Below, in pieces: positions 4,443 to 44,203 of a stretch of 64,000 bases of DNA; within the stretch, counting starts at the first letter, position 1, and the number at the start of each line of letters is the position of its first letter. The notes beneath the pieces are model-generated. The model saw only the letters and a program-made list of their open reading frames with translations. It had not been told where the DNA came from and did not search any database. Position numbers and translations under genes: made by a program. This DNA comes from Deltaproteobacteria bacterium. GTDB lineage: Bacteria; Myxococcota; Kuafuiibacteriia; Kuafuiibacteriales; Kuafuiibacteriaceae. The stretch lies in contig JAVJQW010000033.1 in the NCBI GenBank assembly GCA_040218735.1, positions 32,001 through 96,000 of the forward strand, in the 5' to 3' direction.

Positions 4443-5890
4443 CTCGGCCGGTTCGCGTAGCGGTCCGAGATCGCGGCGAACACCGCGAAGAGGATGATGT
4501 AGCGCGACGTCAGGAGCGTCGCCTGGAGCTGGGACACGGCGATCATCCCCAGCGTTCCCGCCAGGAGCGCGCTCGGGATCCACAGGCGTTCGACCGCGCC
4601 GCGCGCCGCGAAGATCGCGCGGGCCTGGAGCCACAAAATCGCGAGGAGGAGCCACGCCGCGGCGAGGAAACCGAGGGTCCCCGCTTTCACGAGGACGGTG
4701 AGCGGGGCGTTGTCGACGGCGGGTTGGTAGCCCTTCTTCCGGGTGCTACCGGGGCCGCCGAGCTGGTTGGCCCAAGGCACGCGCAGGAGCGCGCCCATGC
4801 CGTGACCGAAGGTGGGCGAAACGGCCGCGTCCTCGAACGCAAAGCGGTAGGAGCGGACGCGGCCCTTGAGCGAGACGTCCTTCTTCGTGGGGTCGGACGA
4901 GAGGGCGGAGAAGCGGCGAGCGACGTCCGAGTCGGCGACCGTCACGGCCGGTCGCGGTCGCGCGGTCTCGATCGCCTGGTAGCCGACCGCCGCGACCACG
5001 ACCGCGGCGACCATTGCCGACACGGGCCGCCACCAGCGGCCACGGTTGCGGCTCGTGAGGACGAGGACACCGGCGGTGAGGAGCGCGACCGCCGGGACCA
5101 GCACGATGAGCGAGCGGGTGATCGAGACCCACGTCGCCCAGATGAGCAGCGGCGCCGGCGCGGCGCGCAGGAAGCGGCTCGCCAGCGAGCGCCCCGCGAT
5201 CGCGTAACCGGTGACGAGGGGCAGCACCGTCACGAACACGAAGTGGTTGTGAAAGTAGATGCGCGCGCTGCCGCGCCAGTGATCGAGGATGACGGAGCGC
5301 GGCCACGTCGTGTCCGGGAGCGTTGACACCACACACGCCGCCACGGCGTAGAGCAGCGACCCCGCGACGATCACGCCGAGCGCAGCGCGGATCCGGCGCT
5401 CCGTCGACAACTCGACCCACGCGACGGGGAGCATCAGCCAGAGCGCGGCGTTGCGCAGGTCGCGGAACAGATCCCAGGTCGCGTGGCCGTTCACGACGCC
5501 GACGAACACCGACAGCGTAATCGCGAAGACGACGGCGAGGATCGGGGGCGCCAGCGACATGTGGCCGCGGAGCCGGTCGAGGCGGAAACGTTCGAGCGCC
5601 CAACGACCGAACCACGCGGCGAGGGAGCCCCAGTAGAGGAGGTCGATCGGGTGCAGCGGCACGCCGAGCTTCTTGCGGAACCACAGGTCGCCGAGGTTCC
5701 CGTGCGGTACGAGCGCGACGACGAACCACAGCAACAGGAGCAGCGCGAAGGGGCGTTTGAGCGCGAGCGTCAATCCCAGCGGGACGATGACGATCGCGGG
5801 CAGCACGGGCGCGCCGAAGCGAACGACCAGGACCGCGCCGACGAGCGCGAGCAACGCGCAGCCGACCGCCATCCACGCCGTTCGCGACAC
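4379..5890 (-). CDS. O-antigen ligase/polymerase-like (Wzy_C) membrane protein
   Basis: Polytopic protein with SITRS, SLKGRVRSY...SPTFGHGMG and DNAPLTVLVKAGTLG segments; sits in a polysaccharide cluster. Confidence 0.75.
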   Translation of the reverse strand: MSRTAWMAVGCALLALVGAVLVVRFGAPVLPAIVIVPLGLTLALKRPFALLLLLWFVVALVPHGNLGDLWFRKKLGVPLHPIDLLYWGSLAAWFGRWALERFRLDRLRGHMSLAPPILAVVFAITLSVFVGVVNGHATWDLFRDLRNAALWLMLPVAWVELSTERRIRAALGVIVAGSLLYAVAACVVSTLPDTTWPRSVILDHWRGSARIYFHNHFVFVTVLPLVTGYAIAGRSLASRFLRAAPAPLLIWATWVSITRSLIVLVPAVALLTAGVLVLTSRNRGRWWRPVSAMVAAVVVAAVGYQAIETARPRPAVTVADSDVARRFSALSSDPTKKDVSLKGRVRSYRFAFEDAAVSPTFGHGMGALLRVPWANQLGGPGSTRKKGYQPAVDNAPLTVLVKAGTLGFLAAAWLLLAILWLQARAIFAARGAVERLWIPSALLAGTLGMIAVSQLQATLLTSRYIILFAVFAAISDRYANRPSQVASRADVVSSSSSSASSRK

Positions 5891-5927
5891 GCGCCTCGCG
5901 TTAGCGCGCGCGCGTGGCGTGTGTCCA

Positions 5928-6632
5928 TCACCCGGCGGGGCGTCGCGCGACCAGGCCGATCGAGAGCTGCAGCGGATCGAACAGCGACCAGCGCGACGGA
6001 TCCGCGCCGAACCGCTTCGCGAGCATGTCGAGGCGCGTCAGGCCCCGGAGGTGTCCGAGGTGTTCGCCGTACCAGTCGTCGACGATCTCCAATCCGGCGG
6101 CGGTCATCGCGTGACGCCAGGTGTCGGGCGGCGCGACGGAGATGTGGCCAGGGTTTCGGTCGGGGATGCCGAACACGGGGAGGCGACGGAGCGCGTAGCC
6201 CAGACCGTCGTTCGGGGTGGTCATCATCAGGACGCCACCGGGGGTGAGGAGGCGCTTGGCGTGGTCGATGCCGAGGCGCGGCGACTCGAGGTGTTCGAGC
6301 ACGTCGAACATCGCGATGACGTCGAAGCTTTCGTCCTCGAACGGCCACGGCTCGGCGGCGTTGCCGACGAGGACGGTGTCCTCACCGAGGTGGGTGTTGG
6401 CGCGCGCGGCGAGGGAGCTCTCCAGCTCGAGGCCGCGGACCTGCATCCCGCGTTCGCGCGCGGCGAGGAGGAACGCACCGTAGGCGACGCCGACCTCGAG
6501 GAGGCGGCGCCCCGCGAGGCCTTGGAGCGCGCGCTCGATGCGGTCGAGCCGGCGCCGGTTCTTCTCGTCCTCGTACGCGGTGTTGCGCCCGAAGTACGCG
6601 TCCTCGTCGTGGCTCAGGTGGCGCGTCACCAT
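5928..6632 (-). CDS. Class I SAM-dependent methyltransferase
   Basis: LLEVGVAYGAF motif I, FDVIAMFDVLEHL, LTPGGVLMMTTPN. Confidence 0.9.
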   Translation of the reverse strand: MVTRHLSHDEDAYFGRNTAYEDEKNRRRLDRIERALQGLAGRRLLEVGVAYGAFLLAARERGMQVRGLELESSLAARANTHLGEDTVLVGNAAEPWPFEDESFDVIAMFDVLEHLESPRLGIDHAKRLLTPGGVLMMTTPNDGLGYALRRLPVFGIPDRNPGHISVAPPDTWRHAMTAAGLEIVDDWYGEHLGHLRGLTRLDMLAKRFGADPSRWSLFDPLQLSIGLVARRPAG

Positions 6633-6738
6633 GGCTCGCGGAAGCTGGCACGGTGAGATCGGGCCTCGCAACGTCGCGTTGACACACGAGGCCCGATTTC
6701 ATTAGCGTCCGCCCGCTCTGAACGATTCCCCGCCGCTC

Positions 6739-7542
6739 TTGGAGCCCCCTGCGCCCACCGATGGGGGGATAGGGTGGCTGGTCGCCGCTGTCTGGCGCCG
6801 CCGCTACCTCGTCGCCCTCGGGTCCCTCTTGTGCGGGATCGCCGCGGGTGGCCTGTCCATGCTGCGACCGAAGACGACGCAGGCCGTCGTCCAGATTCGT
6901 ATGGGGGCGATCGCGCCGATCGGGTTCGTCGAACAGGGCGAGGAGATCGTGCAACGCCTCTCGTCGCTGTCGTCGGCGCTCGACCTCGCTCAGATGAAAC
7001 CCGCGGACGCGGCCACGGCGGCGGGTGTCGACAGGAAGGACCTCCGCGCGGTGCTGGCGCTGAGCGCGACGGTGCATGGCCAGGGGCGGCTCGTTCAGTT
7101 CGTGGTCGAGGCGCCGAACGAGGAGCTCGCGCGCAAGGTCGCGCTGCAGGCGTCGCAGCAGCTCAAAGAGGAGCACGACGCGATCTTCGACACCACGCAC
7201 AAGGAGAACCTCGCGCGCATCCAGCAGCTCGAAGAGATCCTGGAGCGCATGAAGAAGGACGAGGCCGCGGTGGCGCGGAGTCCGGAGGTGGCGCCCGAGG
7301 TCGGTCGGTGGACCGCAGTGGCGCAGCTCGCGAAGGACATCTCGTCGCTCAAGGAGGCGAACCTCCCGCCCAAGGCGTTCCGCACGCGCATCATCGCGGG
7401 TCCGGACGTGAAGCCTTCGCACAAGGGGCCGTCGCGGATCCTGACGGTGTTGTTCGGCCTGTTCACGGGCGCGGTGCTCGCGCTGATCCTGATCGTGGCG
7501 GCCGAGTCGGCGGCGCCGTACCTCGAAGCGAAAGAACGATAG
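6739..7542 (+). CDS. Wzz-like polysaccharide chain-length determinant
   Basis: N-terminal TM after WRRR, coiled-coil periplasmic region, Pro-rich PSHKGPSR segment before the C-terminal TM. Confidence 0.7.
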   Translation: MEPPAPTDGGIGWLVAAVWRRRYLVALGSLLCGIAAGGLSMLRPKTTQAVVQIRMGAIAPIGFVEQGEEIVQRLSSLSSALDLAQMKPADAATAAGVDRKDLRAVLALSATVHGQGRLVQFVVEAPNEELARKVALQASQQLKEEHDAIFDTTHKENLARIQQLEEILERMKKDEAAVARSPEVAPEVGRWTAVAQLAKDISSLKEANLPPKAFRTRIIAGPDVKPSHKGPSRILTVLFGLFTGAVLALILIVAAESAAPYLEAKER

Positions 7543-7551
7543 GCACTGGCC

Positions 7552-8721
7552 ATGCGCGTCGGGATGATCCTCGACAAGGAGTATCCGCCCGACGTTCGGG
7601 TGCGTCGTGAAGCGCGCGCGCTCGTGGCGGCGGGGCACGAGGTGCTGCTCGTCGCGCGGAACCGCAAGGGGGCCGCGCGGGAGGAGACGATCGACGGCGT
7701 GCGGGTGCTGCGACTTCCTCCGCTCGACTTCGCGGGGCCGCGCGCGGCGCGCTGGATGAGTTTGCCCGTGCCGGTGAACCCGTTCTACCTCGCGGCGATC
7801 ACGCGGCTCGTGCACGAGGAGAACGTCGACGTCCTGCACGTGCACGACCTCCCGTTGGTCGTCGGTGCGGCTGCGATCGCGAAGACACGCGGGGTGCCGG
7901 TCGTGTTCGATCTGCACGAGGACTACCCATCGATGATCGCGGACGAGGTGAGCTCGCGCGCGGGGAAGATCATCTTCCGTCGGCTGCGTGCGTTGCATCA
8001 GCTGGAGCGGGTGAGTTTGGCGGCGGCGGATCACTGCCTGGTGGTGGTCGAGGAGCAGCGGCAGCGTTTGATCGGATTGGGGGTGCCGCCCGACCAGGTG
8101 ACGGTGGTGCCGAACGTCCTGGACCTGTCGGACCTCCCGCCGGCGCCCGAGTACGTGGAGCCGACGGAGGAGGTCGTGTTCCTGTACACGGGCATCTTCG
8201 GGCCGACGCGCGGGCTCTCGCAGCTGCTCGACGCGTTGGCGAAGTGGCCCGCGGAGCCCGCGGTGCGGGTCGTGTTGGTCGGTGACGGCGAGGAGCGCGA
8301 GCCCCTGGAGCGCCAGGCGCGTTCGTTGGGGTTGTCGGACCGCGTGACGTTCGCGGGGTGGCAGCCGCACGACAAGTTGGGTGAGTTCATGGCGGCGGCG
8401 GACGTGGGTTTGATTCCGCACGTGAAGACGCCCCACGTCGAGACGACGATGCCCAACAAGATTTATGAGTTCCTCGCGTATGGGTTGCCGGTGGTGACCT
8501 CCGACGCGGCGCCGCTCGCGCGACTGGTGAACGAAGCGGAGTGTGGGATCTCGGTCGACGTCGAGGACCCGGAGGCGTTTGCGAAGGCGTTGTTCACGAT
8601 GGCCTCCGACACCGACCTTCGGCTGAAGTACAGCGACGCCGGGCGTCGGTACGTCGTGAACCGCCACAACTGGTCGAAGCTCGGCGCGCCCGCGTTGCTC
8701 GGCGCGTACGCTACTCTGTAA
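7552..8721 (+). CDS. Glycosyltransferase family 4
   Basis: YPPDVRVRREARAL, VFDLHEDY, MPNKIYEFLAYGLPVVTSD (GT-B motif). Confidence 0.92.
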   Translation: MRVGMILDKEYPPDVRVRREARALVAAGHEVLLVARNRKGAAREETIDGVRVLRLPPLDFAGPRAARWMSLPVPVNPFYLAAITRLVHEENVDVLHVHDLPLVVGAAAIAKTRGVPVVFDLHEDYPSMIADEVSSRAGKIIFRRLRALHQLERVSLAAADHCLVVVEEQRQRLIGLGVPPDQVTVVPNVLDLSDLPPAPEYVEPTEEVVFLYTGIFGPTRGLSQLLDALAKWPAEPAVRVVLVGDGEEREPLERQARSLGLSDRVTFAGWQPHDKLGEFMAAADVGLIPHVKTPHVETTMPNKIYEFLAYGLPVVTSDAAPLARLVNEAECGISVDVEDPEAFAKALFTMASDTDLRLKYSDAGRRYVVNRHNWSKLGAPALLGAYATL

Positions 8722-8724
8722 CTC

Positions 8725-9927
8725 ATGCGAGGTGCGCTGAGCACGAGCGCGGGGGTCGGCGTGGTGATGGTCGCCGCGGCGCTGTCGCAGTTCTTCGCGA
8801 TGATCCTGCTGGGGCGCACGTCTGAGGCTGCGCTCGGACAGGTGTCGCTCGTGCTGTCGACCGCGACGGTGGTCGGGACGTTTGCGTTGGTCGGGCAGTC
8901 CAACGCCTTCGCGCGGATCCTGGCGCGTGGCGATGCGGCCCAGCTTGCGTGGCCGGTGCAGCTGCGACGCGCGCTGCTCGAGTCCGTCGTGCTGTCGGCG
9001 GCGATGGGGTTGGTCGCGTCGTGGGCGCTGTCGATGTCGTGGATGGCGACCGGCGTGGTGGTCGTCGCGGCGGCGGGGCTGGCGGTGTCGGAGCTCGTGG
9101 CGTCGGGCGTGCTGCGGCCGCTGGGGAAGTTCTTCTCCGCGTCGTTGCTCCTGCGGTTCTGGTCGTTGGCGTTGGGGCTCGCGGTGGTCGGGCTGTTCTT
9201 GGCGGAGGGGCTGACCAAGGACTCCTCGCTGTTGGCGTTCGGCGCGGTGGCGGGCGTCGGGGTGGTGCTCGGCCCTCTGGCTTTGATCCGCGCGCCTTCC
9301 GGGGAGGAGCCGCTGCCGTCGACGTGGCGGCGTACGGGCTTCATGTTCTGGTCGATCCAGCTGTGCCTGATCGCGACGCGGCACCTGGATAGGTTGGTGC
9401 TCGGCGGCGTGCTCGGCGAAGAGACGCTCGCGAAGTACCAGGCGGTGCTGACGCTGTTGATGGCGTTCGATCTCGCGTCGACCGCGCTCGGGTTCGTGTT
9501 GTTGCCGAAGCTCGCGCGCACGGCGCGCGTGAACGCGCCGCGGCTGGGGTCGATGGTGGGCGCGGTCGCGGCCGCGGGCGTGGTGGGTTATCTGCTGCTG
9601 GCGGAGCCGGTGCTGCACTGGGCCTACGACGGCCACTTCGACGACTCGGCTTTTTTGATCTCGTGGTTCGTGGCGGCGGGTGTGCTGAAGGTGATCTACG
9701 CGCTGCCCTCGGCGCTCTTGGGCGGCCGCACGAGTGACCGCGCGCTGGCGTGGTTCGCGGGGCTCAACGTTCCGCTGGTGGTGGTGCATGCCACGTTGAC
9801 GGCGTACCTGGCGCACGTCGACGGCGTGCGGGGGGCGGCGATCGCGCTGGTGATCGCGTGGGGGCTGCGGTTGGTGGTGTCGATCGGGTTGGTGTGGCGG
9901 TTCTGGGAACCGGAGCGGGTGAGTTAG
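8725..9927 (+). CDS. Wzx-like oligosaccharide flippase
   Basis: About 12 TM helices; HLDRLVLGGVLGEETLAKYQ is typical of MOP flippases; coupled to the GT4 gene. Confidence 0.7.
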   Translation: MRGALSTSAGVGVVMVAAALSQFFAMILLGRTSEAALGQVSLVLSTATVVGTFALVGQSNAFARILARGDAAQLAWPVQLRRALLESVVLSAAMGLVASWALSMSWMATGVVVVAAAGLAVSELVASGVLRPLGKFFSASLLLRFWSLALGLAVVGLFLAEGLTKDSSLLAFGAVAGVGVVLGPLALIRAPSGEEPLPSTWRRTGFMFWSIQLCLIATRHLDRLVLGGVLGEETLAKYQAVLTLLMAFDLASTALGFVLLPKLARTARVNAPRLGSMVGAVAAAGVVGYLLLAEPVLHWAYDGHFDDSAFLISWFVAAGVLKVIYALPSALLGGRTSDRALAWFAGLNVPLVVVHATLTAYLAHVDGVRGAAIALVIAWGLRLVVSIGLVWRFWEPERVS

Positions 9928-13208: not shown

Positions 13209-14444
13209 TCATGCGCGGCCCGCGGACTCCTGCCCTCGGATCACCCCCAGCGCCACCCAGAACACCAGCCCCACCGTCGCGTGATGCAGCGCGAAGTGTG
13301 TCAGGCCCACGACGAATACCACCACCAGGGTCGACAGCGCCCAGCGCGCGAGGTGCGCGTCGGCTCCTTGCCCTCGCCCCAACGAGCGCGCGTTTCGCAC
13401 GGCGATCCACAGCGCGCCGAAGAACATCATCGAGAAGCCGAACAGCCCCACGATCCCCGTCTCCGCCAACACCTGCAGGAACTGGTTGTGGGGCGACGTG
13501 TGGGTCACACGCGCGAGGTTCGCCGGCATGTGCGGGCCGACGACGCTGCGGTAGACGCCGTGGCCGGCGCCGAAGATCGGGTAGGCCTTCGCGACCTCCA
13601 CGCCCGCGGACATCATCGCCTTGCGGATGCCGGCGTCCTTCGTGAGCGACGACGTCACGCGTTCGCCCTGCGGTGACGCCAGCACCAGCACCACCGTCAC
13701 CACGCCCACCGCGGCGAAGGCCAAGATCGTGCGCAGGCGAACGCGGATCAGACCGAAGGTCACGGCCAACCCGGCGACCAACGCCACGAGCGCCATGCGC
13801 GCGTACGCGAACAGGACGCCAGCGCCGCTGATCACCAACGCGCCGCCGGCCAACAGCCGCCACTTTCGATCCAGCTTCCGATCGATCACCAGCGGCACCA
13901 GCATCACCAGCACCACGGCGCCGACGTGCGCGAGCTTCAGCCGGTTGTAGAACAGCCCGCTCGCGGCGCGAGTGATGCGCGGCCACCCCGGCGTCCAGAT
14001 CTGTCCCGACCGGGGGTTGCTCAACAGGTACGGGTCGAGCGGCAGCTCGCCGACCACGCGCTGCAACAGGCCGTAGGCCGCGTTGATCGTGAACGCCAAA
14101 CCAAACGCCAATGCCACGCGCCCCAACACCCGCGGCGGCGCCTTCGCGATCGTGAAGCCGACCAGCAGGGCGACCGCTTGGATCGGGCGGGTGAGATCCG
14201 TCGAAGACGCCTCACCCTCGAACGACAGGTGCCCCACGCACCCCGCCAACGCCCAGATCAGGATCCCCAGCTCGACGAAGCCCGGTCGGTACCCGCGCAA
14301 TGCCCCCGCCGCGAACGCCACCACGATCGCGACGACACACAGGATCTGCGCCGGTCCCTCGAACAGGGCGAGCATGAACACAAACCCGATCTGCGCCGCG
14401 GGGAGCGCCCGGGCGGCGGTTTCGGACAGACCAGACGAGCGCAC
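13209..14444 (-). CDS. O-antigen ligase family protein
   Basis: RAASGLFYNR, AYARMAL, PIFGAGHGVY, SPHNQFLQVLAETGIVG (WaaL/Wzy_C motif). Confidence 0.88.
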   Translation of the reverse strand: MRSSGLSETAARALPAAQIGFVFMLALFEGPAQILCVVAIVVAFAAGALRGYRPGFVELGILIWALAGCVGHLSFEGEASSTDLTRPIQAVALLVGFTIAKAPPRVLGRVALAFGLAFTINAAYGLLQRVVGELPLDPYLLSNPRSGQIWTPGWPRITRAASGLFYNRLKLAHVGAVVLVMLVPLVIDRKLDRKWRLLAGGALVISGAGVLFAYARMALVALVAGLAVTFGLIRVRLRTILAFAAVGVVTVVLVLASPQGERVTSSLTKDAGIRKAMMSAGVEVAKAYPIFGAGHGVYRSVVGPHMPANLARVTHTSPHNQFLQVLAETGIVGLFGFSMMFFGALWIAVRNARSLGRGQGADAHLARWALSTLVVVFVVGLTHFALHHATVGLVFWVALGVIRGQESAGRA

Positions 14445-16263: not shown

Positions 16264-16432
16264 GACTGGGCGCCGCGAGGGGGCGGCTAAACCCCCGCAA
16301 CTCATACGCGTTCCGAACGGGCCGTCACCTACGTCGTAGAGGGGGGATGCCTCCCGTAACGGGACGGTAACGTCCGGACCCGCGGCGCTTTCGGCGTGCG
16401 ATGGTACGTGGGGTGCATTGGGCGCGAGCGTG

Positions 16433-18589
16433 ATGAAGCGCTCGAAAGCTCTCCCGCTCTCCTTCGGTTTGATGTTTGCCGTCGCGTGCGGCGGCAGTGA
16501 CGGTGCCAAGGGTCCGGCCGGCGATCCTGGCGCGCAGGGCCCCGCCGGCCCCGCGGGTCCGGTCGGCGGTACCGGCGACCCCGGTACGGACGGCACGAAC
16601 GGCAACGACGGCCGCGACACGATCTTCTCAGGCCCCGGCCTCGCGTTCGAGATGATGAACGCGTCCCTGACCGGCACGACCGCCACGGTCGAGTTTACGG
16701 TCGCCGACGGTGACGGAACCCCGCTCGACGTCGACGGTCGTTACACCGAAGGCGCCGTCTCCGTGAGCTTCGTCCTCGCGGCGCTCGAAGAGGACGCCGA
16801 CGGCGAGGGCGTCGCGTACCACGCGTACACGACGCGCGAGCAGACGAGCCCCATCACGATGGAGACCGCCGAACAGGCGTCGACCGACAGCGGCGGCACC
16901 GTCGAAGTACTCTCCATCGAGGAGGGCCGATACCGCTACACGTTCGGGACGCCCGTCAGCGTGATGGACGAAGGGTGGACCCACACGATCGCGGCCTACG
17001 CGACGCGCACGTTCGAGGAGGTTCGCTACGTCGCGAACCACGAGCTGAACTTCCGCCCGGACGGCGCCGCCGTGACGGTCACGCGCGACATCGCCAACGA
17101 CGACGCGTGTGCCTCCTGCCACGACGACCTGTCGGCGCACGGCGGCTCGCGTCGCGACGTGTTGCTCTGCCAGACCTGCCACACGCCGGACACGGTCGAC
17201 CCGGACACCGGCAACACCGTCGACTGGAAGGTCATGATCCACAAGATCCACCGCGGCGCTTCGCTCCCGAGCGTCGAGGCCGGCGGAACCTACGAGATCA
17301 TCGGCTTCAGGCAGTCGTCGCACGACTACTCGGACGTGCACTTCCCGCAGCTCATCGAGCGCTGCGAGGTCTGCCACACCGGTGAAGATGCGGATCGCGC
17401 GCTGACCGCGCCGGCCCGCGACGCCTGCCTCTCCTGCCACGACACCACGTCGTTCGTGGACCCGCCGCCCGCCGGCATGGTCCTGCACGGCGGCGGCGCG
17501 CAGCCGGACGGTGCACCGTGCAACGTCTGCCACGCGCCGACGGGGAGCATCGCGGGCGTCACCGAGAGCCACCTCACCGCGCTCCTCGATCCGGCGAACC
17601 CGAGCGTCGGCCTCGAGCTGATGTCCGTGTCGAACAGTGGCCCCGGGATGACGCCTACCGTACGCTTCCGCGTGACGGTCGACGACATGCCGCGCGACAT
17701 CATCGCGAACCCGCTCGACACGCTGCGCCTGACCTTCACCGGGCCGAACACCGACTTCGCGACGACGTGGCAGGCGACCGTCGCGGGCGGCGGCCTCGCC
17801 GCGGTCGACGCCGCGGACGGTGTCTTCGACTTCACCGTCGGCGCCGCCCAGGCGGTCCCGGTCGGCGCGAGCGGCAGCTACACCGTCGGCATGGAAGGTT
17901 ACCTGCGCCCCGGCTCGGATCGCTTCGCGGCGTTCAGCCCCGTGATGCCGTTCGCGGTGACGGACGCGGCCGCGGTGCCGCGCCGCACCGTCGTCAGCAG
18001 CGACAAGTGCAACGCGTGTCACTACGACCTCGCGCTGCACGGTGGGCAACGCAAGAACCCGGGCGTGTACTGCGCCACGTGCCACAACGCGAACCTGACG
18101 AACGCAGGCCGCTCGCCGAAGCCCGAGGGTGAAGACATCTACGTCAACACCACCGACTTCAAGCGCATGATCCACAAGATCCACGCGGGCGAGAACCTGA
18201 CGCAGCCCTACGCGCTCGGTGGGTTCGGCGGACCGATCGACTTCGGTCACGTTCGCTACCCGGCGACGCTGTCGAACTGCGACGTCTGCCACGTCGACGA
18301 CTCGCACCAGCTGCCGGTCGCGGCGGGGGTGTTGCCGTCCATCGAAGAGGTGCGGACCTGCCTGGAGGCCCCGGGCGCCGACACCAACGACACTTGTGAC
18401 TCCGCGATGTGGGTCGTGACTTCGACCATCGTGCTGCAGCCGGAGACTTCGGCGTGCACGAGCTGTCACGACTCGCCCGCCGCGCTCGCGCACGCCAACA
18501 TCATGACCACCCCGGATGGTCGTGAGAGCTGCGCGACGTGCCACGGGTCGGGCGCTGGCTACGACGTCGACGTCGTGCACGGGAACTGA
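16433..18589 (+). CDS. OmcA/MtrC-family decaheme c-type cytochrome lipoprotein
   Basis: Lipobox FAVAC; 10 CxxCH motifs in two blocks of five; two (K/R)MIHKIH segments; beta-rich domains between the heme blocks. Confidence 0.9.
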   Translation: MKRSKALPLSFGLMFAVACGGSDGAKGPAGDPGAQGPAGPAGPVGGTGDPGTDGTNGNDGRDTIFSGPGLAFEMMNASLTGTTATVEFTVADGDGTPLDVDGRYTEGAVSVSFVLAALEEDADGEGVAYHAYTTREQTSPITMETAEQASTDSGGTVEVLSIEEGRYRYTFGTPVSVMDEGWTHTIAAYATRTFEEVRYVANHELNFRPDGAAVTVTRDIANDDACASCHDDLSAHGGSRRDVLLCQTCHTPDTVDPDTGNTVDWKVMIHKIHRGASLPSVEAGGTYEIIGFRQSSHDYSDVHFPQLIERCEVCHTGEDADRALTAPARDACLSCHDTTSFVDPPPAGMVLHGGGAQPDGAPCNVCHAPTGSIAGVTESHLTALLDPANPSVGLELMSVSNSGPGMTPTVRFRVTVDDMPRDIIANPLDTLRLTFTGPNTDFATTWQATVAGGGLAAVDAADGVFDFTVGAAQAVPVGASGSYTVGMEGYLRPGSDRFAAFSPVMPFAVTDAAAVPRRTVVSSDKCNACHYDLALHGGQRKNPGVYCATCHNANLTNAGRSPKPEGEDIYVNTTDFKRMIHKIHAGENLTQPYALGGFGGPIDFGHVRYPATLSNCDVCHVDDSHQLPVAAGVLPSIEEVRTCLEAPGADTNDTCDSAMWVVTSTIVLQPETSACTSCHDSPAALAHANIMTTPDGRESCATCHGSGAGYDVDVVHGN
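16502..16618 (+). repeat. Collagen-like (Gly-X-Y)13 stalk in the decaheme protein
   Basis: GAK GPA GDP GAQ GPA GPA GPV GGT GDP GTD GTN GND GRD. Confidence 0.85.
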
Positions 18590-19926
18590 TGCAGAGGTCG
18601 GCGCTCCTCCTCGTCCTGCTCCCGCTCGCCTGCTCCGAAGCGCGCGAGCGGGAGGCTCGGGGGGACTGTGTGAGTTACGTCGAGGACGTCGCGCCGCGTC
18701 TGCGTCAGTACTGCTCGACCTGCCACGCCGAGGATCGCGCCGAAGGCGACTACGTCACCGCCACCTACGGCGCGGTCCTCCAAGGTGGCTCGGATGACGT
18801 CCCCAACGCCATCGCCGGGGACGAGGAATCACGGATCCTCCAAGTGCTCGCCACCGCCGAACGCCACCACCTCGAGGCGACCGCGATCGCTGGGCTGCTG
18901 CGCGAGTGGGTCGTCGAGTGCGAGCTCGCCCACCGCGACTCGTTCGTCCACGAGCCCGGCATCCTCGATCCGGCCAGCGACGCGTTCCATGGCGCGTCCC
19001 TCGCGGGTACCGGCGACGTCTACGCACCGTGCCGCGAATGCCACGGCGATCGACTGCGCGGCGGCGGTACGGAGGTCTCCTGCCGGACGTGTCACCGCCC
19101 GGACGCGACGGACTGCAGCGTCTGCCACCGGCCCGAGAAGGTCGACGCTCCGCACGCGCGCCACGCTGCGTTCGACTGCGAGAGCTGCCACGCGGTCCCC
19201 GAGCGCTACGACGCGCCCGGGCACCTCGACGGCACTGCGGACGTTCGCATCGTCGCCTTTGGGCTGGACGGCGCGTTCGATACGAGCGCGAAGACCTGCG
19301 AAGCCTACTGCCACGGCGAGCAGCGCCCCGCGTGGGGGTCGGGGGAGGACGCCCCGTGCGGCACGTGCCACGGCAACCCGCCGACGTCGCACGCGTTCGA
19401 CGACTGCGCGCGCTGCCACGACACCGCGACGCACGTGAACGGGGCGGTCGAGGTGTTCGAGGACTGCGACGCCTGCCACGTCCCGGCCGAGACCGGCAAA
19501 CACCGCGAGCACCTGTCGCCGCGGCTGCGCCTCACCTCGTCGATGCAGTGCAGCGACTGCCACCTCGTACCCGAGACGGTGACGGCGCCGGGGCACCTCG
19601 ACACGCCGGCTCCGGCGGAGGTGTTCGTCGAGGCGATCCTCGGGGAGAGCCTCGCCGCCGCGCGCGGCGCGAACCCGACCTACGACGGAGCGACGTGCTC
19701 CAACGTCTACTGCCACGGCGACGCGACGCTGTCCTGGGCGCCGTCCACGGAGCACGTGGTGTTCTGCGGGACGTGCCACGGGCTCCCGCCCGAGACGTCG
19801 CCCCACGAATCGTCGATGACGATCCGAACCTGCGTCGACTGCCACGCCAGCAGCGTCGATGGGTTCGGCAACATCATCTTCGTCGACGGAGAAAGTGAGC
19901 ACCTCGACGGTGAAGTCGATCGCTGA
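18589..19926 (+). CDS. CxxxxCH/CxxCH-type multiheme cytochrome lipoprotein (13 motifs)
   Basis: Lipobox LPLAC; 11 CxxCH plus CEAYCH and CSNVYCH; start overlaps the upstream stop (TGATG). Confidence 0.88.
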   Translation: MQRSALLLVLLPLACSEAREREARGDCVSYVEDVAPRLRQYCSTCHAEDRAEGDYVTATYGAVLQGGSDDVPNAIAGDEESRILQVLATAERHHLEATAIAGLLREWVVECELAHRDSFVHEPGILDPASDAFHGASLAGTGDVYAPCRECHGDRLRGGGTEVSCRTCHRPDATDCSVCHRPEKVDAPHARHAAFDCESCHAVPERYDAPGHLDGTADVRIVAFGLDGAFDTSAKTCEAYCHGEQRPAWGSGEDAPCGTCHGNPPTSHAFDDCARCHDTATHVNGAVEVFEDCDACHVPAETGKHREHLSPRLRLTSSMQCSDCHLVPETVTAPGHLDTPAPAEVFVEAILGESLAAARGANPTYDGATCSNVYCHGDATLSWAPSTEHVVFCGTCHGLPPETSPHESSMTIRTCVDCHASSVDGFGNIIFVDGESEHLDGEVDR

Positions 19927-20548
19927 TCTCCTCGTCCTCGCGACGATCGTCTTTGCGCTGATCGCCGGAGCGATCATGGTCTGGTACCTGATACGCCAAC
20001 CCGCGCTCACCGCTGCAACCAAACTTGCGTTGCTCGCGGGCATCTTCGTCTTCCCGCTGCTGTCCGCGATGTCCGGCAACGTGTCCGGCTACGAGACCAC
20101 CCAGAAGCGTCACTTCTGCGGTGGGTGCCACGTCATGATCCCGTACACCGATGACGCGGAGAATCCGAACAGCACTTCACTCGCGTCGCTGCACGCGAGG
20201 AACGAGCTGTTCGGTGATCGCAACTGCTACCGCTGTCACGAGGACTACGCGATGTTCGGCGCCGTCACGACGAAGGCGACCGGCCTCGTGCACGCGTATC
20301 ACTACGTGAAGTCGTACTGGTCGATGCCCGCGGAGGACGCGCTCGGCAAGATGCACCTGTACAACCCGTACCCCAACTCCAACTGCATGCACTGTCACTC
20401 GACTCGGCTCCCGGGGTTCGAGGAGCTCGCGGATCACAAGGGCGCGCTCGAGTCGATTCGCGAAGGCAAGGAGAGTTGCGTGAGCTCGGGGTGCCACGGC
20501 CCGGTGCACCCGTTCTCCAAGAAGAAAGAGGAGGAGGCGCAGCCATGA
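19910..20548 (+). CDS. NapC/NirT-family membrane-bound tetraheme cytochrome (quinol dehydrogenase-like)
   Basis: Two N-terminal TMs, then FCGGCHVM, CYRCH, CMHCH and CVSSGCH. Confidence 0.85.
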   Translation: MKSIADLLVLATIVFALIAGAIMVWYLIRQPALTAATKLALLAGIFVFPLLSAMSGNVSGYETTQKRHFCGGCHVMIPYTDDAENPNSTSLASLHARNELFGDRNCYRCHEDYAMFGAVTTKATGLVHAYHYVKSYWSMPAEDALGKMHLYNPYPNSNCMHCHSTRLPGFEELADHKGALESIREGKESCVSSGCHGPVHPFSKKKEEEAQP

Positions 20549-20775
20549 CGGCGCTGTCCTCGCCGTCCGCGCATCGCCGCCTCCGCTACGCGTGCTGGAT
20601 GACCATCGCGGCGCTCGCGATGTTCGTCTGGTCCGTGATCGACCCCGGCGTCATCCCGGTGATGATCGCGATGAGCGTCGGGCAGGTGCTCGGGACGCTC
20701 GCGACGATGCTGTTCCTCTGGGTCGTGCTCTCGGACCTGCGGCGCGCACGGGTGTTGGATCGGGAACGCCGATGA
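20545..20775 (+). CDS. Small 2-TM membrane protein
   Basis: 76 aa with two hydrophobic helices; ATGA overlaps at both ends. Confidence 0.75.
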   Translation: MTALSSPSAHRRLRYACWMTIAALAMFVWSVIDPGVIPVMIAMSVGQVLGTLATMLFLWVVLSDLRRARVLDRERR

Positions 20776-21890
20776 TCCCGTTGCTCCTCCTCGTCGTCGC
20801 GCAGGCTGCGCCGAGTTATCGGTTGCGCGCCGACGTGCTCGCGGCGAGCCAGGCGCCCTCCGGCGTCATCGCGCTGTCGGGGGAGGCGAAGCAGGCTTCG
20901 TGGGTCTCCGCCGAGGCGCTGCTGTGGGCGGGCGACGAGGAGATCGACGCGCTGATCGCGTCCGTGCGGCTGGTGCACCCCGACGGACTGGGCGAGCTGC
21001 GCGCCGGTCGAATGCTGCTCGCGACGGGGGCGCTTCGGCCCGTGCACTTCGACGGCGCGGCGGGCCTCGTGCGTGCTCCGTGGGGTACGACCGTCGAGGC
21101 GTTCGCGGGGTCGCCGGTGGTGCCGCGTTTTGCGTACCGCGGCGGTGACTGGTTGGTGGGCGGGCGTGTCGTGCAGCGCGTGAGCGGCCTCGGCCACGTC
21201 GGCGTCGCGATCCTGCGACGCACCGACGACGGCGCGCTCGCGGACCAGGAGGTCGGCCTCGACGCGGTGTTCCTACCGGCGGAGAGCGTCGACGTCGCCG
21301 CGCGGGCCGCGTACGACCTCGTGACCTACGGCGTGAGCGAAGCCTCGATCGGCGGCGGCGTGACGCTGTCCCCGGTGCGGGTGAGCGTGCTCGCGCAGCA
21401 CCGTTCGCCGTCCCGGATCCTGCTCGCGACGTCCGTGTTCTCCGTGCTCGGCGACGTGCCTTCCAACGCATTCCTCGTCACGGCCGACTGGCGCGCGGCG
21501 CCGCGCCTCGACGTGTCGCTGACCGCCGGCGCGCGGCACGTGGACGGGTGGGGCGACGAGGTTCGCCTCGCCTCCACGTTACGTCTCGACGACCGCGGGC
21601 ACGGGGCCGTCGGCGTCGTCCTCACGCGCTACGGCGCAGGGGGCGCGAGGTGGATGGGCGCGCGGGTGTTCGTGCGCCAACCGATCGTCGATGCGTTGAT
21701 CGCATCGCTCGAGGCGGAGCTCGCGCGCACGGAAGACGGTGACGTCTGGCCGTGGGCGCTCGGTGCGATCACCTGGCGGTTCCTGCCGCGGTGGGACGCG
21801 GCGCTCGCGGTGGAGAGCAGCGCGTCGCCGACGTACCGCTACGCAGTGCAGGCGATCGGACGGGTGGGGTACCGGTGGAGCGGACCGTGA
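20772..21890 (+). CDS. Predicted outer-membrane beta-barrel (porin) protein
   Basis: Signal peptide, amphipathic beta-strand alternation throughout, C-terminal strand QAIGRVGYRW; lies inside the cytochrome operon. Confidence 0.7.
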   Translation: MIPLLLLVVAQAAPSYRLRADVLAASQAPSGVIALSGEAKQASWVSAEALLWAGDEEIDALIASVRLVHPDGLGELRAGRMLLATGALRPVHFDGAAGLVRAPWGTTVEAFAGSPVVPRFAYRGGDWLVGGRVVQRVSGLGHVGVAILRRTDDGALADQEVGLDAVFLPAESVDVAARAAYDLVTYGVSEASIGGGVTLSPVRVSVLAQHRSPSRILLATSVFSVLGDVPSNAFLVTADWRAAPRLDVSLTAGARHVDGWGDEVRLASTLRLDDRGHGAVGVVLTRYGAGGARWMGARVFVRQPIVDALIASLEAELARTEDGDVWPWALGAITWRFLPRWDAALAVESSASPTYRYAVQAIGRVGYRWSGP

Positions 21891-22915
21891 AGCGTTTGTT
21901 GGTGTTGTTGGCGCCGGTTGCGTTCGCGGCGTGTGCGACGTTGCTCGGGATCCGTCCGCCGGAGGGCGGGCCCTTCGAGCACCGCGCGCACGTCTTGAAC
22001 GGCATCGCCTGCCTCGACTGCCATACGTCGATCCTCGCCGCGACGTCCTCCTCCGCGGTCGCGCTGCCGACCCGCGATCTGTGCTGGAAGTGCCACGAAG
22101 ATCCGCACGACAAAAAGCCCTGCCTGACCTGCCACGGCGATCGCGACACCGCGCGCCGCACGGAGATGGCGCGTTACTACCTGAGCTTCGATCACTCGAC
22201 GCACACGCCGCGGCTCGACGGGCAGTGCGTCCGTTGCCACGTCGACGTGCGCGAGGAGCGCGCGAGCCTGATGCCGAAGATGGGCGTCTGCCTCTCCTGC
22301 CACGCACACGAAGACGACTTCGAGGTGCGCGACTGCGACCGCTGCCACGTCGCGCTGGAGGCGGAGACGGTGCGCCCCTCGAGCCACGCGGTGCACGCCG
22401 ACGACTTCGTTCGGTCGCACGGTCCGCAGGCGTCTTCGTCCGCCGACCTCTGCCGGACCTGCCACAGCGAACGCGAGTGCGCCTCCTGCCACGGCATCTC
22501 CGTGCCCGCGTTGTCCTGGCGCTTCGAGCTCGACAACCCGCGGCGCGCGGGGCTGCACCGCGCGAACTTCGTCGCTCGCCACGCGACGGAGGCGCGCGTC
22601 GACGCGAGCGCCTGTCTGTCGTGCCACACCCGCGAGACGTGCCAGAGCTGCCACGCGCGCGAGGACGTCGCGACCGGCTCCACGAAAGTGAGCCCCCACC
22701 CGCCGGGGTGGGTCGGCGTGAATTCGAACCGCCACGGGATCGAGGCGCGGCGGGATCCGCTGGCGTGTGCGTCGTGCCACGGCGGCGCGGGCGAGATGTT
22801 GTGCGTCGACTGTCACGCGGTGGGCCGCTTCGGCGGATCGCCCCATCCGCCGGGTTACCGCAGCGCGAAGAACCGCGCGCGCGACGTGCCGTGTCGCTGG
22901 TGCCACGTCCCGTGA
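21887..22915 (+). CDS. Cytochrome c3-like multiheme lipoprotein (13 CxxCH)
   Basis: Lipobox FAAC; FEHRAH and FDHSTH c3-type segments; 13 CxxCH; GTGA overlap. Confidence 0.88.
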   Translation: MKRLLVLLAPVAFAACATLLGIRPPEGGPFEHRAHVLNGIACLDCHTSILAATSSSAVALPTRDLCWKCHEDPHDKKPCLTCHGDRDTARRTEMARYYLSFDHSTHTPRLDGQCVRCHVDVREERASLMPKMGVCLSCHAHEDDFEVRDCDRCHVALEAETVRPSSHAVHADDFVRSHGPQASSSADLCRTCHSERECASCHGISVPALSWRFELDNPRRAGLHRANFVARHATEARVDASACLSCHTRETCQSCHAREDVATGSTKVSPHPPGWVGVNSNRHGIEARRDPLACASCHGGAGEMLCVDCHAVGRFGGSPHPPGYRSAKNRARDVPCRWCHVP

Positions 22916-24273
22916 AGCGTTGGGTCGCCGCGTTGTTGTTCCTCGTCGCGTGTGATGCGCCGACGCGCCCGTCCGTCTACGTCCCGGAGTCGTGGAAGGA
23001 GTACCGCAAGGGCATCGGCCACCTCGTGCACCTCGAGGCGGAGGACATCGCGTGCGCCGACTGCCACCCCGCGGAGGGGAGCGGCTTCGCTTCTCCGGGT
23101 GATCTGATCTGCGAGCGGTGCCACGAGGACGTCCTGGATCGGACGCACGTGTCCGCCGAGGCGCCGAAGAGCAAGTGCCTCGAGTGCCACGGCTTCAAGG
23201 AGGTCACGGAGGTCGCGCCCGACGCCTGCGCGCGGTGCCACGAGGACGCCGAGGTCCACACGGACAAGTGCACTTCGTGCCACCAGCCCCACGGCACCAA
23301 GCCGCGCGCCCGCTGCGAGACGTGCCATGAAGAGGTCAGCTCGGCGCTGCACGTCACCATCCGCGATCCGATCGAACGCTGCGAGGCCTGCCACGAACCG
23401 CACGGTGACGTCCGTTCGTGCGCGAGCTGCCACGAGGACAAGAAGGCGGCGCCCGGTCACGAGGGTTGCTCGGACTGCCACGTCGCGCACGACGAGCCGA
23501 AGACCTGCGCGAGTTGCCACACGAAGCAGTCGGACCTCGGGCACGAGAAGTGCTCGGACTGCCACGACCCGCACCGCGAGTCGAAGCCCCTCGACGCGTG
23601 CGCGACGTGCCACACCGACGTGTTAGTGAACCACGCCGACAAGAACGCGTGCGCCGACTGTCACGCTGGGCACGCGAAACCGACGCTCACCTGCACGAAG
23701 TGCCACGAGAACGCCCCGTCCGACCGCGCGCTGCATGCGAGCAAGACGGATTGCAAGAGCTGCCACCAGCCCCACGGGATGCAACCGCTCGATTGTTCGC
23801 GCTGCCACGCGACGGTGCTCCCGATCGCGCCGCACGAGGACTGCGCGTCCTGCCACGACACCGCGCACGCTCCGAAGAAGGACGACGCGGCGTGCGCGAC
23901 GTGCCACGAGGTCGGCGGCCACGAAAAGTGCGGCGACTGCCACGAGCCTCACACCGGGCGCACTGCGAAGAAGGACTGCGCGTCGTGCCACGACAAGGTC
24001 ACGGCGCACGGCAAGAAGGCTTGCGCGACGTGCCACGATCAACACGCGAAGAACGAGCCGCCGGCGTGTGTCTCTTGCCACGAGGTGCTGCCGGCGCTGC
24101 ACGGCGACCCCGGGCACCGCGACTGCAGTGGGTGCCACGAGGCGCACGGACCGCGCCCGGTGTCGGACCGGCGAACGTGTGGCCGTTGCCACGAAGGTCT
24201 GGAGACACACGAGCCCGCGGCGTCGTCGTGCCGCGGCTGTCACCCGTTCACGACGGCCGCCGTACCACGATGA
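22912..24273 (+). CDS. 25-heme c-type cytochrome lipoprotein
   Basis: Lipobox LVAC; 25 CxxCH counted in 453 aa; GTGA overlap with the upstream stop. Confidence 0.9.
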   Translation: MKRWVAALLFLVACDAPTRPSVYVPESWKEYRKGIGHLVHLEAEDIACADCHPAEGSGFASPGDLICERCHEDVLDRTHVSAEAPKSKCLECHGFKEVTEVAPDACARCHEDAEVHTDKCTSCHQPHGTKPRARCETCHEEVSSALHVTIRDPIERCEACHEPHGDVRSCASCHEDKKAAPGHEGCSDCHVAHDEPKTCASCHTKQSDLGHEKCSDCHDPHRESKPLDACATCHTDVLVNHADKNACADCHAGHAKPTLTCTKCHENAPSDRALHASKTDCKSCHQPHGMQPLDCSRCHATVLPIAPHEDCASCHDTAHAPKKDDAACATCHEVGGHEKCGDCHEPHTGRTAKKDCASCHDKVTAHGKKACATCHDQHAKNEPPACVSCHEVLPALHGDPGHRDCSGCHEAHGPRPVSDRRTCGRCHEGLETHEPAASSCRGCHPFTTAAVPR

Positions 24274-34299: not shown

Positions 34300-35265
34300 T
34301 CAGGCTCTTGACTGGCGGGCCAGGATCTCTTTGATTTCCTGGTTCTCTCGACCGAGTCGCGTCATCTCGTTTTCGACCGCGGCGAGACGTTCCGCGAGTT
34401 GACTGTGCATCACGGCGAGGCTCTTGAACTCGTCGAGCACCATGTCCTGACTGATCTTCATCGGCCCCGGACCCTCGCGCGGCGGCGCGGGTGGCGCTGC
34501 AGGTTGTCTTGCATTCGCGTTGGCGCCGAGGCTCGTCTTCGGAATCGAAGCCGACCAGCTGCCCGGCTTCACCGACGGCGGACGCTGCGCAGCCGCAGCA
34601 CGCGCCGCCGGGTGGTTCGCAGCGGGCGCAGCCGCGGGTGACGACGCCGGCTTCTTCCCCGCCGTGTTCGGGATGACCTTCCCGCCGGCCTTGATGTGAT
34701 TGAACACGCCGAGCGTGATGTGACGCAGCGTCTCGAGCACGCCCGTCCCCTGCGACGCGACCGCCGGGAGCGACTTCACGCCGCGCTCGTTGAGCTGCGC
34801 GGCCAGCTCCGCCTCCGGGATGAGGTGCGGGAGGTCGCGTTTGTTCCACTGCATCACGAGCGGAATCGAGCTGTAGTCGAGCCCGTTCGCGGCGAGGTTC
34901 GTCTTGAGGTCGGCGAGGGACTGGCGGTTCTCGTCGACCATGTGGTCCTGCGAGTCGGCGACGAACACGATGCCGTCCGCGCCCTTCAACACGAGCTTGC
35001 GCGTCTCGGCGTAGTAGACCTGTCCGGGCACCGTGAAGAGGCGGACCATGAACTTCATGCCGCTGATCGTCCCGAGGTTGAGGGGCAACAGATCGAAGTA
35101 GATCGTTCGGTCCGTCTCGGTCGCGACGGACAGCAGCTCGCTGCGCGTCTCGGGGCGCATGCGCGCATGGACTTGCTGGAGGTTGGTCGTCTTTCCGCAG
35201 CGACCTGGCCCGTAGTACACGATCTTGGCGATCAACTCGCGCGACTTGTAGTTATACGTCGGCAT
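34300..35265 (-). CDS. MglA-family small GTPase with C-terminal linker and coiled coil
   Basis: KIVYYGPGRCGKTTNL, TETDRTIYFD, TVPGQVYY, LKGADGIVFVADSQ, NKRD. Confidence 0.92.
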   Translation of the reverse strand: MPTYNYKSRELIAKIVYYGPGRCGKTTNLQQVHARMRPETRSELLSVATETDRTIYFDLLPLNLGTISGMKFMVRLFTVPGQVYYAETRKLVLKGADGIVFVADSQDHMVDENRQSLADLKTNLAANGLDYSSIPLVMQWNKRDLPHLIPEAELAAQLNERGVKSLPAVASQGTGVLETLRHITLGVFNHIKAGGKVIPNTAGKKPASSPAAAPAANHPAARAAAAQRPPSVKPGSWSASIPKTSLGANANARQPAAPPAPPREGPGPMKISQDMVLDEFKSLAVMHSQLAERLAAVENEMTRLGRENQEIKEILARQSRA

Positions 35266-35311
35266 CCAGAACCCGCCCGGCAGTCTCCAATCGGCAGGAT
35301 TTGTGGTCAAG

Positions 35312-41395: not shown

Positions 41396-41902
41396 TCAGC
41401 GCGGGTCGACGTCGAACGCCCGACGCACGGGCCGCTCCAGGTGCCGAGCGATGCTCTCGCGAATGTGCGTCCCGTCGTCGTCGATCACGAGGGCGTGGAC
41501 GTAGAGCGTCCGGCCGTCCGCCGACACGTCGAGGCTCAGCGTGCCTGGCGTCAGGGAGATCAGGCTCGCGAGCATCGTGATCTCCACGTCGGACGTCAGG
41601 TGGATCGGCACCGCGACCACGCCGGGGCGCACCGCCAGCTTCGGTCGCCACGCCTCGCGCGCCACGCTCAGCGCGGACTTCACCAGCTCCAACAGAAACG
41701 CCGCGGCGAGCACCAAGAGCCCCCACGGCCTTGGACGCACCCGTCGCTGCAAGTGCCCGTCGCCCGGCGGAGCCAGGCGCGTCGTCAGCGTCAGGATGAT
41801 CGCGGAGACCACCGCGCCCGCGGCGATTCCGCGCAGGTCGAGTGACGCAAAGAGCGCCGTCCACACGGCGGTCAAGAAGAGCACGGTGACGACCTGACTC
41901 AC
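41396..41902 (-). CDS. mrpE: Mrp Na+/H+ antiporter subunit E
   Basis: PGVVAVP, LASLISLTPGTLSLDV, LYVHAL. Confidence 0.93.
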   Translation of the reverse strand: MSQVVTVLFLTAVWTALFASLDLRGIAAGAVVSAIILTLTTRLAPPGDGHLQRRVRPRPWGLLVLAAAFLLELVKSALSVAREAWRPKLAVRPGVVAVPIHLTSDVEITMLASLISLTPGTLSLDVSADGRTLYVHALVIDDDGTHIRESIARHLERPVRRAFDVDPR

Positions 41903-43374: not shown

Positions 43375-43763
43375 GCCGCGAGCTCCTCTTCAGCCGCGCG
43401 ATCCGGCGTGTCGTCGGCGACGGTCTCCGCTTCGGAGAGGCGGTCGGTGTCGAGCGTGCCCAGCGTTCGGTACACGCGGAAGGCGAGCGCGAACGCAAAC
43501 GCTGTGATGCCGAAGCTGATCACGATCGCCGTGAGGATGAGCGCCTGCGGGAGCGGATTGGCGGCCTGCTCCAATGTCTGGGCGCCGGCGGGGATGATCG
43601 GCGGCATCCCGCGGGTGAGCCGGCCCGAAGTGAAGATGACGAGGTTCGCCGCGTTCGAGACGAGCATGAACCCGATCACCATGCGGAGGAAGCTCCGCCG
43701 AAGGAGCGCTTGGAGCGCGAGCGCCAGTACGATGCCGGCGCATATCGCGAGGGACACCTGCAT
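43371..43763 (-). CDS. mrpC: Mrp antiporter subunit C
   Basis: NPLPQALILTAIVISFG. Confidence 0.94.
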   Translation of the reverse strand: MQVSLAICAGIVLALALQALLRRSFLRMVIGFMLVSNAANLVIFTSGRLTRGMPPIIPAGAQTLEQAANPLPQALILTAIVISFGITAFAFALAFRVYRTLGTLDTDRLSEAETVADDTPDRAAEEELAA

Positions 43764-43765
43764 CG

Positions 43766-44203
43766 TTAGTCGTCCTCCTTCAAACGCGAGGGCTGCAGCT
43801 CGAGCGTGAAGACGAAGAGGAGCACCGTGCCGACGACGACGAAGTACACGCCGAGGTCGAACAGCGTCGTCGTGCCGATGTCGTAGTGCCCGCCGCCGGG
43901 GAGCGGCAGATGGAACCACAGGCTGCGGAGCATCGGCTCGCCGAGCAGGGCCGGGAGGACTGCGGCGATCGCGGCGCACCCCAGACCGAACGCGGCGAGC
44001 TGCGTCGGAGACACGGGGAAGCGGGCGCGGGCCTCCCGGGCGTCGCCGGAGACGATCCACAGCACGAGGCCCGCCGCTGCGACGAGGCCGCCGACGAACC
44101 CGCCGCCCGGATCGTGGTGACCGCGCAGGAACACAAACACCGAGAAGAGGAGGATGAGCGGCATCAAGAGCCGCGCCATCGTGCGCAGGAGGATCGAGTA
44201 CAT
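43766..44203 (-). CDS. mrpB: Mrp antiporter subunit B
   Basis: [26 protein letters not shown]. Confidence 0.94.

Follow-up and report, generated by a model that had tools for sequence, protein, structure and literature searches.

A seven-gene, 65-heme operon of Myxococcota that very probably encodes a porin-cytochrome conduit other than MtrCAB

Porin-cytochrome conduits are well known and variants are still being reported, which limits how much surprise a further one can cause. Two described systems concern us most: MtrCAB of Shewanella with its quinol link CymA, and the porin-cytochrome clusters (Pcc), among them OmbB-OmaB-OmcB, ExtABCD and ExtEFG of Geobacter and the group IV cluster of Anaeromyxobacter (Adeh_3392). 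Pcc clusters place a porin of 18–22 predicted strands beside a cytochrome with 5–14 hemes that always accompanies it, and in Anaeromyxobacter and Kuenenia the partner cytochromes have 338–344 residues and 12–14 hemes (PMC4245776). In Geobacter, outer components are replaced while the porin pair stays (PMC6148476), and in Rhodoferax a quinol oxidoreductase gene lies within the conduit cluster (PMC6295460). Here we describe a seven-gene operon, g1 to g7, at positions 16433..24273 (+ strand) of a 64,000-nucleotide window of contig JAVJQW010000033.1 (assembly GCA_040218735.1, a Deltaproteobacteria bacterium placed in Myxococcota); positions are those of this window unless a related locus is named. 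Judging from sequence comparisons and structural models, the operon is real and conserved, and it very probably encodes a trans-envelope electron conduit.

The operon beside known conduits

The seven open reading frames (ORFs) hold 65 heme motifs, 62 of them CxxCH and three CX3CH or CX4CH, and every junction overlaps, by 1 nt (TGATG), by 17 nt, and then through ATGA, ATGA, GTGA and GTGA. An initial annotation, made by a model from the sequence, had given the same coordinates, lengths, motif counts and overlaps, all of which we recovered with the ORFs intact; its four lipoprotein cytochromes are likewise borne out by lipobox-like cysteines, recognised by eye, at C19 of g1, C15 of g2, C16 of g6 and C14 of g7. 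All CxxCH motifs are confined to two + strand frames of the locus, and the other 56 kb of the window have none in any of the six frames. GC content at third codon positions (GC3) is 0.87–0.93 in the seven genes.

With MtrCAB and CymA the operon shares an OmcA/MtrC-family protein (g1), a NapC/NirT-type quinol link (g3) and a cytochrome predicted to be sheathed by a barrel (g6 in g5), but it is not MtrCAB. The MtrA/DmsE family test failed, the best candidate being g6, a 13-heme lipoprotein, with 32.3 of the 192.2 demanded by TIGR03508; MtrB has 649 residues (6r2q_B) and 26 strands against 372 residues and 22 strands for g5, and neither g5 nor any of its 117 relatives has an MtrB/PioB Pfam match. 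The annotated view of a conduit with a porin and wire pair other than MtrAB is supported. It is less unprecedented than it had seemed, since the layout fits the published description of Pcc. The likeness is one of description: g5 has 22 strands in its model, the 13-heme g6 lies beside it in 72/72 loci, and with its 342 residues and 13 hemes g6 comes close to the partner cytochromes of Anaeromyxobacter and Kuenenia. Atypical motifs are frequent in the lipoprotein cytochromes of the Pcc outer membrane, and they also mark the lipoprotein g2 (CX3CH and CX4CH), which, with the lipoprotein g1, would also be placed at the surface, and outer components swap around a constant porin pair as in Geobacter. 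In contrast, the Anaeromyxobacter Pcc are two-gene clusters only; our operon has a lipoprotein as its pore cytochrome and also encodes a NapC-type quinol module, a 25-heme wire and a protein of the MtrC family. The annotated idea of one operon reaching from the quinone pool to the surface keeps its parts, with Rhodoferax as a precedent for a quinol oxidoreductase gene inside the cluster. No match to a characterised system with a purely periplasmic role emerged.

The open-access literature, subscription papers lying outside our search, yielded no description of this operon, although its relatives have been tabulated. Supplementary file 1 of MHCscan (PMC11475568, 2024) lists uncharacterised multiheme cytochrome neighbourhoods of Minicystis, Labilithrix and Haliangium as rows without comment, and these taxa are absent from the main text. 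The Minicystis rows correspond in length and heme count to our locus L015 from Minicystis rosea DSM 24000 (876/8, 396/0, 349/13 and 599/26) and omit g3 and g4; the Haliangium ochraceum rows 4006–4011 give MtrC, a 501-residue protein, two unlisted ORFs, a 395-residue protein, a 368-residue protein with 13 hemes and a 610-residue protein with 27, which would reproduce the order seen in the window. Also counted among the closest known systems are the EET1-4 clusters from peat (10.64898/2026.05.27.727921), which come from Acidobacteriota and Verrucomicrobiota. Myxococcota have been reported to lead in novel multiheme clusters (10.1101/2022.03.26.485925), and omcS expression by a Myxococcota genome has been described (10.64898/2026.08.10.744021).

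The g5 barrel and the cytochrome predicted to fill it

At the centre of the operon is g5 (20772..21890, +; 372 residues), for which a beta-barrel had been annotated. The model, built on an alignment of 118 sequences, agrees: it shows 22 strands starting at residue 15, with a mean predicted local distance difference test value (pLDDT) of 88.1 and a predicted template modelling score (pTM) of 0.78. The closest folds, at 6–15% identity, are TonB-dependent transporters (their plug-free part only), ushers and AlgE. The best match is the FyuA barrel (Z 19.6, root-mean-square deviation (rmsd) 4.0, 318 residues aligned), and it spans only residues 137–651 of FyuA, which is to say its barrel; MtrB (6r2q_B) ranks 22nd (Z 15.7, rmsd 4.9, 319 aligned). 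We rejected a TonB-dependent transporter, given that g5 has no N-terminal plug, that its barrel begins at residue 15 and that the matches are limited to barrels. A barrel of 22 strands without a plug would leave a large hole, and g5 may well be a porin sheath.

The family has no name. Neither Pfam nor NCBIfam matches g5, the best Pfam E-value among the 118 members being 0.036; its family profile did not find MtrB in the PDB up to an E-value of 10, PDB profile searches gave nothing relevant to link g5 with named Pcc porins, and no NCBIfam barrel family appeared in 34 distant g5 matches. Among the 120 + 120 + 13 matches listed, most of them unnamed proteins, no Geobacter or Anaeromyxobacter name occurs. 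Relatives number 693 among 8000 scored candidates and 340 among 1.84 billion representatives, and their Atlas clusters are mostly Myxococcota with no shared Pfam family. Because g5 lacks a Pfam or NCBIfam model, it is missed by marker searches. Three apparent porin-cytochrome fusions (P0190, P0199 and P0210) were set aside as frameshift read-throughs.

Directly behind g5 lies g6 (21887..22915, +), and this arrangement recurs in 72/72 assessable loci, i.e. the 80 fetched minus seven with less than 300 nt downstream and minus L051, in which the g5 frame is not labelled. All 69 complete g6 homologues (69/69) have 13 motifs and the same lipobox; no match to g6 was found in plasmids. The annotation had called g6 c3-like; its 13 hemes hold, and the N-terminal half is better called c7-like (PF14522 56.1 bits versus PF02085 21.5), the first 140 residues forming two c7-like triheme domains that resemble a c7 polymer (GSU1996, E-value 7.6e-18). 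Thirteen non-motif histidines and Met117 are invariant in g6, and g7 has 25 spare histidines for its 25 hemes, enough in both cases for closed six-coordinate wires. A fold search with the g6 model gave a top Z of only 4.9 (ActA, rmsd 4.3, 119 aligned), with the C-terminal half barely covered.

How might g6 meet the barrel? Co-folding of a barrel with its cytochrome, which the annotation had proposed, gave the g5–g6 pair a score of 0.82 (runs 0.82, 0.85 and 0.81), the best of three controls reaching 0.00; that mark is attained by 116/157 solved pairs and 2/215 mismatched pairs, counts that hold roughly here because we supplied our own alignments. The runs have at least 87% of contacts in common, and the partner pLDDT is at least 73. 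In the model, residues 131–324 and 4–8 of g6 touch 22/22 strands of g5, the contacts coming from the regions of hemes 6–13 and none from those of hemes 1–5, and the C-terminal seven hemes are predicted to fill the lumen like a plug. Residue 165 would touch the middle of strand 11 and residues 180–189 would sit at the long-loop end, as expected if the N-terminal half resides in the periplasm. Alignment columns in contact are more conserved than the others (0.69 versus 0.57, p 1.7e-5).

Exchangeable modules around a constant core

A genome scan with a single motif, which reaches only the near family, yielded 124 matches and 118 relatives, and 80 loci were kept, of which 66 resolve to Myxococcota and 14 carry no phylum; the synteny survey bears out the annotated myxobacterial range. 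Across Myxococcota the g5–g6 core is constant while the quinone module (NapC-type, ImcH-like or Qrc-like) and the surface cytochrome swap. All seven genes occur in 14/80 loci, 12 of them in the order and strand of the window. The counts that follow come mostly from 41 well-flanked loci (about 6.5 kb to either side), and changes were placed on a quickly built tree with 70 rows, of which 61 are labelled. One genome has the porin locus three times with differing modules (L019, L025 and L030), and another has it twice on one contig (L051 and L070). Heme biosynthesis genes lie near the locus in several relatives, HemN above its cutoff and a HemG-like gene just below (L047 6863–9028, L060, L065; L078 16869–17627, L047, L065).

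A quinone-linked module is present in 40/41 well-flanked loci, as g3 in 33, an ImcH-like protein in five and a Qrc-like (QrcABCD-like) set in two; the three kinds are unrelated or distantly related, and the tree requires four changes. In the window, g3 (19910..20548, +; 212 residues, three CxxCH and one CX4CH) was annotated as NapC/NirT-like, and it does pass PF03264, narrowly (27.1 bits versus a cutoff of 24.1); it has two N-terminal hydrophobic segments, not one. A 56-sequence profile of the g3 family matches NrfH (2j7a, E-value 2.1e-5), and Met76 of the heme 1 motif CxxCHxM and Lys122 are kept in 61/61 sequences and align with NrfH. For NrfH, CymA and NapC, quinol oxidation has been linked to this methionine and a conserved lysine (10.1101/2022.01.10.475773). 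The protein is thus a candidate NrfH-like inner-membrane quinol oxidoreductase, which differs from NrfH, CymA and ImcH in its two transmembrane helices, its CX4CH fourth motif and its dedicated small partner g4, and which has histidine where NrfH has aspartate in the alignment.

That partner, g4 (20545..20775, +), is a 76-residue hairpin of two hydrophobic, presumably transmembrane, segments with no Pfam or NCBIfam family above cutoff. It accompanies g3 in 58/60 loci that have either gene, and Pro34 and Gln47 are present in 61/61 sequences; we regard it as an obligate genomic partner of g3 and probably as a membrane subunit of the quinol module. A comparison with the first hairpin of ImcH, from which it might have split off, gave a probability of 10.7% and a score of 19.8, which 1/30 shuffles exceeded. 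Among the replacements, five related loci encode a 513–529-residue protein with CX3CH as its first motif, which we name ImcH-like by the published description alone (PMC4251993, PMC6295460). In five others a QrcABCD or alternative complex III-like set stands directly after g7 where g3 and g4 are absent (L040 13814–19096; L033, L045, L053 and L057).

At the other end of the proposed path, 39/41 well-flanked loci have a surface-type cytochrome: g1 in 17, a hexaheme lipoprotein in 21, another large cytochrome only in one; two have none. The annotated decaheme MtrC/OmcA-like protein g1 (16433..18589, +; 718 residues, 10 motifs) clearly belongs to that family (TIGR03507, 408.9 bits versus a cutoff of 209.3), and its PDB matches include OmcA (4lmh, E-value 2e-24), MtrF (3pmq, E-value 3.7e-20) and UndA. 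After the lipid cysteine follows a collagen-like Gly-X-Y tether (PF01391 at residues 21–61, under its cutoff), which suggests a terminal cytochrome held at the cell surface. The hexaheme lipoprotein replaces g1 in one Polyangiaceae-rich clade (L003 15521–16870, - strand, and relatives); the two have the tether in common and never co-occur. Past the collagen repeat it has no family match, and it has no PDB relatives; its C-terminus presumably recalls NrfA/OcwA-type proteins. Large proteins with 8–9 hemes, which combine carboxypeptidase-regulatory-like, PKD and MtrC-like heme domains, adjoin the conduit in some relatives (L015 3713–6343, - strand; L005, L009, L013 and L019).

Between core and surface we would place g2 (18589..19926, +; 445 residues, 11 CxxCH plus CX3CH and CX4CH), a CxxxxCH/CxxCH domain family lipoprotein (TIGR01904, 58.8 versus 27 bits) with no relevant PDB match. 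It occurs in 38/41 well-flanked loci and stands directly behind g1 or its replacement in 39/60 loci that have it, and it may be an outer-membrane adaptor from the pore cytochrome to the surface cytochrome. On the periplasmic side, g7 (22912..24273, +; 453 residues, 25 motifs) is a short-repeat heme chain with 18 residues per heme and only generic c3/c7 matches in the PDB; it is found in 36/41 well-flanked loci, and its homologues have 22 to 27 motifs. Proteins with only an N-terminal hydrophobic stretch should stay in the periplasm. A lipobox pattern divided 56 g7 homologues into eight lipoproteins and 48 others, six more lipoboxes were recognised by eye, and because the remaining 42 have a hydrophobic stretch only, we read g7 as probably a membrane-tethered periplasmic wire.

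In the window, a sulfate-permease-family gene lies upstream of the operon and a convergent methyltransferase gene borders the other side. The 169-nt intergenic region before g1 (16264..16432, +) is the likely promoter region, with no convincing motif: no sigma-70-like site was found in it, a sigma-54-like match 18 nt before the g1 start has two mismatches and is not credible, and no promoter, terminator or regulator box at the operon exceeded chance level. GC content of the locus equals that of its flanks and so gives no hint of a recent transfer. The 40 flanking ORFs of the window that were picked and scanned showed no cytochrome c maturation gene, and hence such genes must lie elsewhere in the genome. 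The window also contains polysaccharide-type genes upstream (4379–9927 and 13209–14444; a glycosyltransferase, a methyltransferase, an O-antigen ligase and membrane proteins without assignment), an Mrp-type cation/proton antiporter cluster (41396–46506, - strand) and a gene for a small Arf-like GTPase (34300–35310, - strand), which we take to resemble myxobacterial MglA and so to fit a myxobacterial host.

Direction and use of the conduit

From this computed parts list, the constant g5–g6 pair and the modelled lumen position, we infer a path whose order, sidedness, direction and acceptor would be as follows. Together with g4, g3 would oxidise quinol at an NrfH-type heme 1 site. The tethered g7 would carry electrons across the periplasm; at about 8 Å per heme it would measure about 20 nm if linear. 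Electrons would pass from g7 into the two c7-like domains of g6, which is lipid-anchored beside the barrel and probably has these domains facing the periplasm, and then through the g5 pore via the C-terminal hemes of g6. Finally, g2 and then g1 on its tether at the surface would deliver them to an extracellular acceptor, e.g. Fe/Mn oxides, humic quinones or flavins. A porin-cytochrome conduit from the quinone pool to the cell exterior, most likely with outward flow when oxygen is short, is the explanation that we consider probable; its conduit architecture is very likely, and, granted that architecture, outward respiration as the main use is somewhat favoured. Outward flow is preferred because an MtrC-family protein is present and because an ImcH-like protein can take the place of g3.

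The same conduit could instead run inward: Fe(II), reduced humics, electrodes or other cells would supply the electrons, and quinone would be reduced to feed respiration of oxygen or nitrate. The hosts are for the most part considered aerobes, NapC/NirT proteins serve both electron directions (PMC6295460), and 5/80 loci have a Qrc-like complex that is best matched by models of menaquinone reductase subunits; yet mtr clusters of Fe(II) oxidisers tend to be without mtrC (PMC4245776), whereas here the MtrC-family protein is present, quinol oxidation is the only role in which ImcH has been implicated (PMC6295460), so that the ImcH-like replacement points the same way, and Met76 and Lys122 of g3 match the menaquinol-oxidising NrfH site. 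We consider inward flow unlikely. Alternatively, the heme chain might serve chiefly as a capacitor or overflow valve, in which surplus electrons are stored and dumped while swarms, flocs or aggregates briefly lack oxygen, with no growth on external acceptors. Such a use would suit 65 hemes per set, a g7 whose motif number varies from 22 to 27 and relatives from soil, peat and activated-sludge genomes, but an electron store could do without an outer-membrane pore, a cytochrome to fill it and an MtrC at the surface, and g5–g6 is the most constant part of the operon; as the main function it is quite unlikely, although storage and conduction can coexist. Less plausible than either is that the barrel serves the export or uptake of the lipoproteins, metal or heme, with the cytochromes as a redox complex of the periplasm that is simply encoded alongside it: TonB-dependent transporters, ushers and AlgE are indeed the nearest folds, but the resemblance is limited to the barrel at low identity, g5 has no plug, g6 is predicted within its lumen, and the clustered neighbour genes of the loci include no recurrent transporter partner.

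Several points weigh against an outward conduit as we have drawn it, beginning with the fact that all of its support comes from sequence and models. The g5–g6 pair was folded without hemes and with our own alignments, i.e. outside the calibration of the tool, and the modelling of complexes covered this pair only among the cytochromes of the operon; the g6 model by itself is modest (pLDDT 68.5, pTM 0.45), and the prediction may owe something to the solved MtrAB complex, though no sequence likeness was found. The difference in conservation is confounded, as positions in the lumen and loops differ in any case from those that face lipid. Among well-flanked loci, 5/41 are without g7 and 1/41 is without a quinone module, g3 stays far under the NrfH and NapC cutoffs (TIGR03153 and TIGR02161; 28.3 of 134.2 and 17.2 of 310.6), and the swap of g1 for the hexaheme lipoprotein is a single event on the tree rather than repeated evidence. 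Domain III of Shewanella MtrC has a CX8C redox disulfide (PMC9973256), and 22/23 full-length g1 sequences have no cysteine between hemes 5 and 6 and so are without that pair; a non-heme CX8-12C pair between hemes 8 and 9 (Cys643 and Cys655; 18359–18397) is present in 23/23, and this pair might be an oxygen-sensing disulfide that has changed place or might have a structural role only. Cultured Myxococcota, moreover, are described as predominantly aerobic (10.1101/2021.07.06.451402).

If the outward conduit is nevertheless correct, extracellular electron transfer would extend, beyond Anaeromyxobacter, to a broad group of myxobacteria from soil, peat and sludge. The operon shows an MtrC-family protein paired with a non-MtrB porin, in a design with a constant pore core and exchangeable inner and outer modules. 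Because relatives exist in cultured strains, namely Minicystis rosea and Haliangium ochraceum DSM 14365 (protein P0088 and the published table), the claim is directly testable. A correlation of Haliangium and of a Polyangia amplicon with the activity of cable bacteria has been published and interpreted by its authors as predation (PMC10092204); conduit-mediated electron exchange may be an alternative. Tentatively, and with more doubt than conviction, we suggest that Polyangia myxobacteria, including cultured 'aerobic predators', have a trans-envelope wire family of their own, an unbroken, membrane-tethered chain of hemes that leads from quinol to the surface and dispenses with a soluble shuttle, whose porin is unrelated to MtrB and to Geobacter Pcc and onto which MtrC has been grafted, and that in oxygen-poor swarms and sediments this wire may let them respire with, or exchange electrons with, minerals, humics or neighbour cells. 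Myxobacteria are usually regarded as aerobic predators, and what we describe here would be a known conduit strategy built around an unnamed pore protein.

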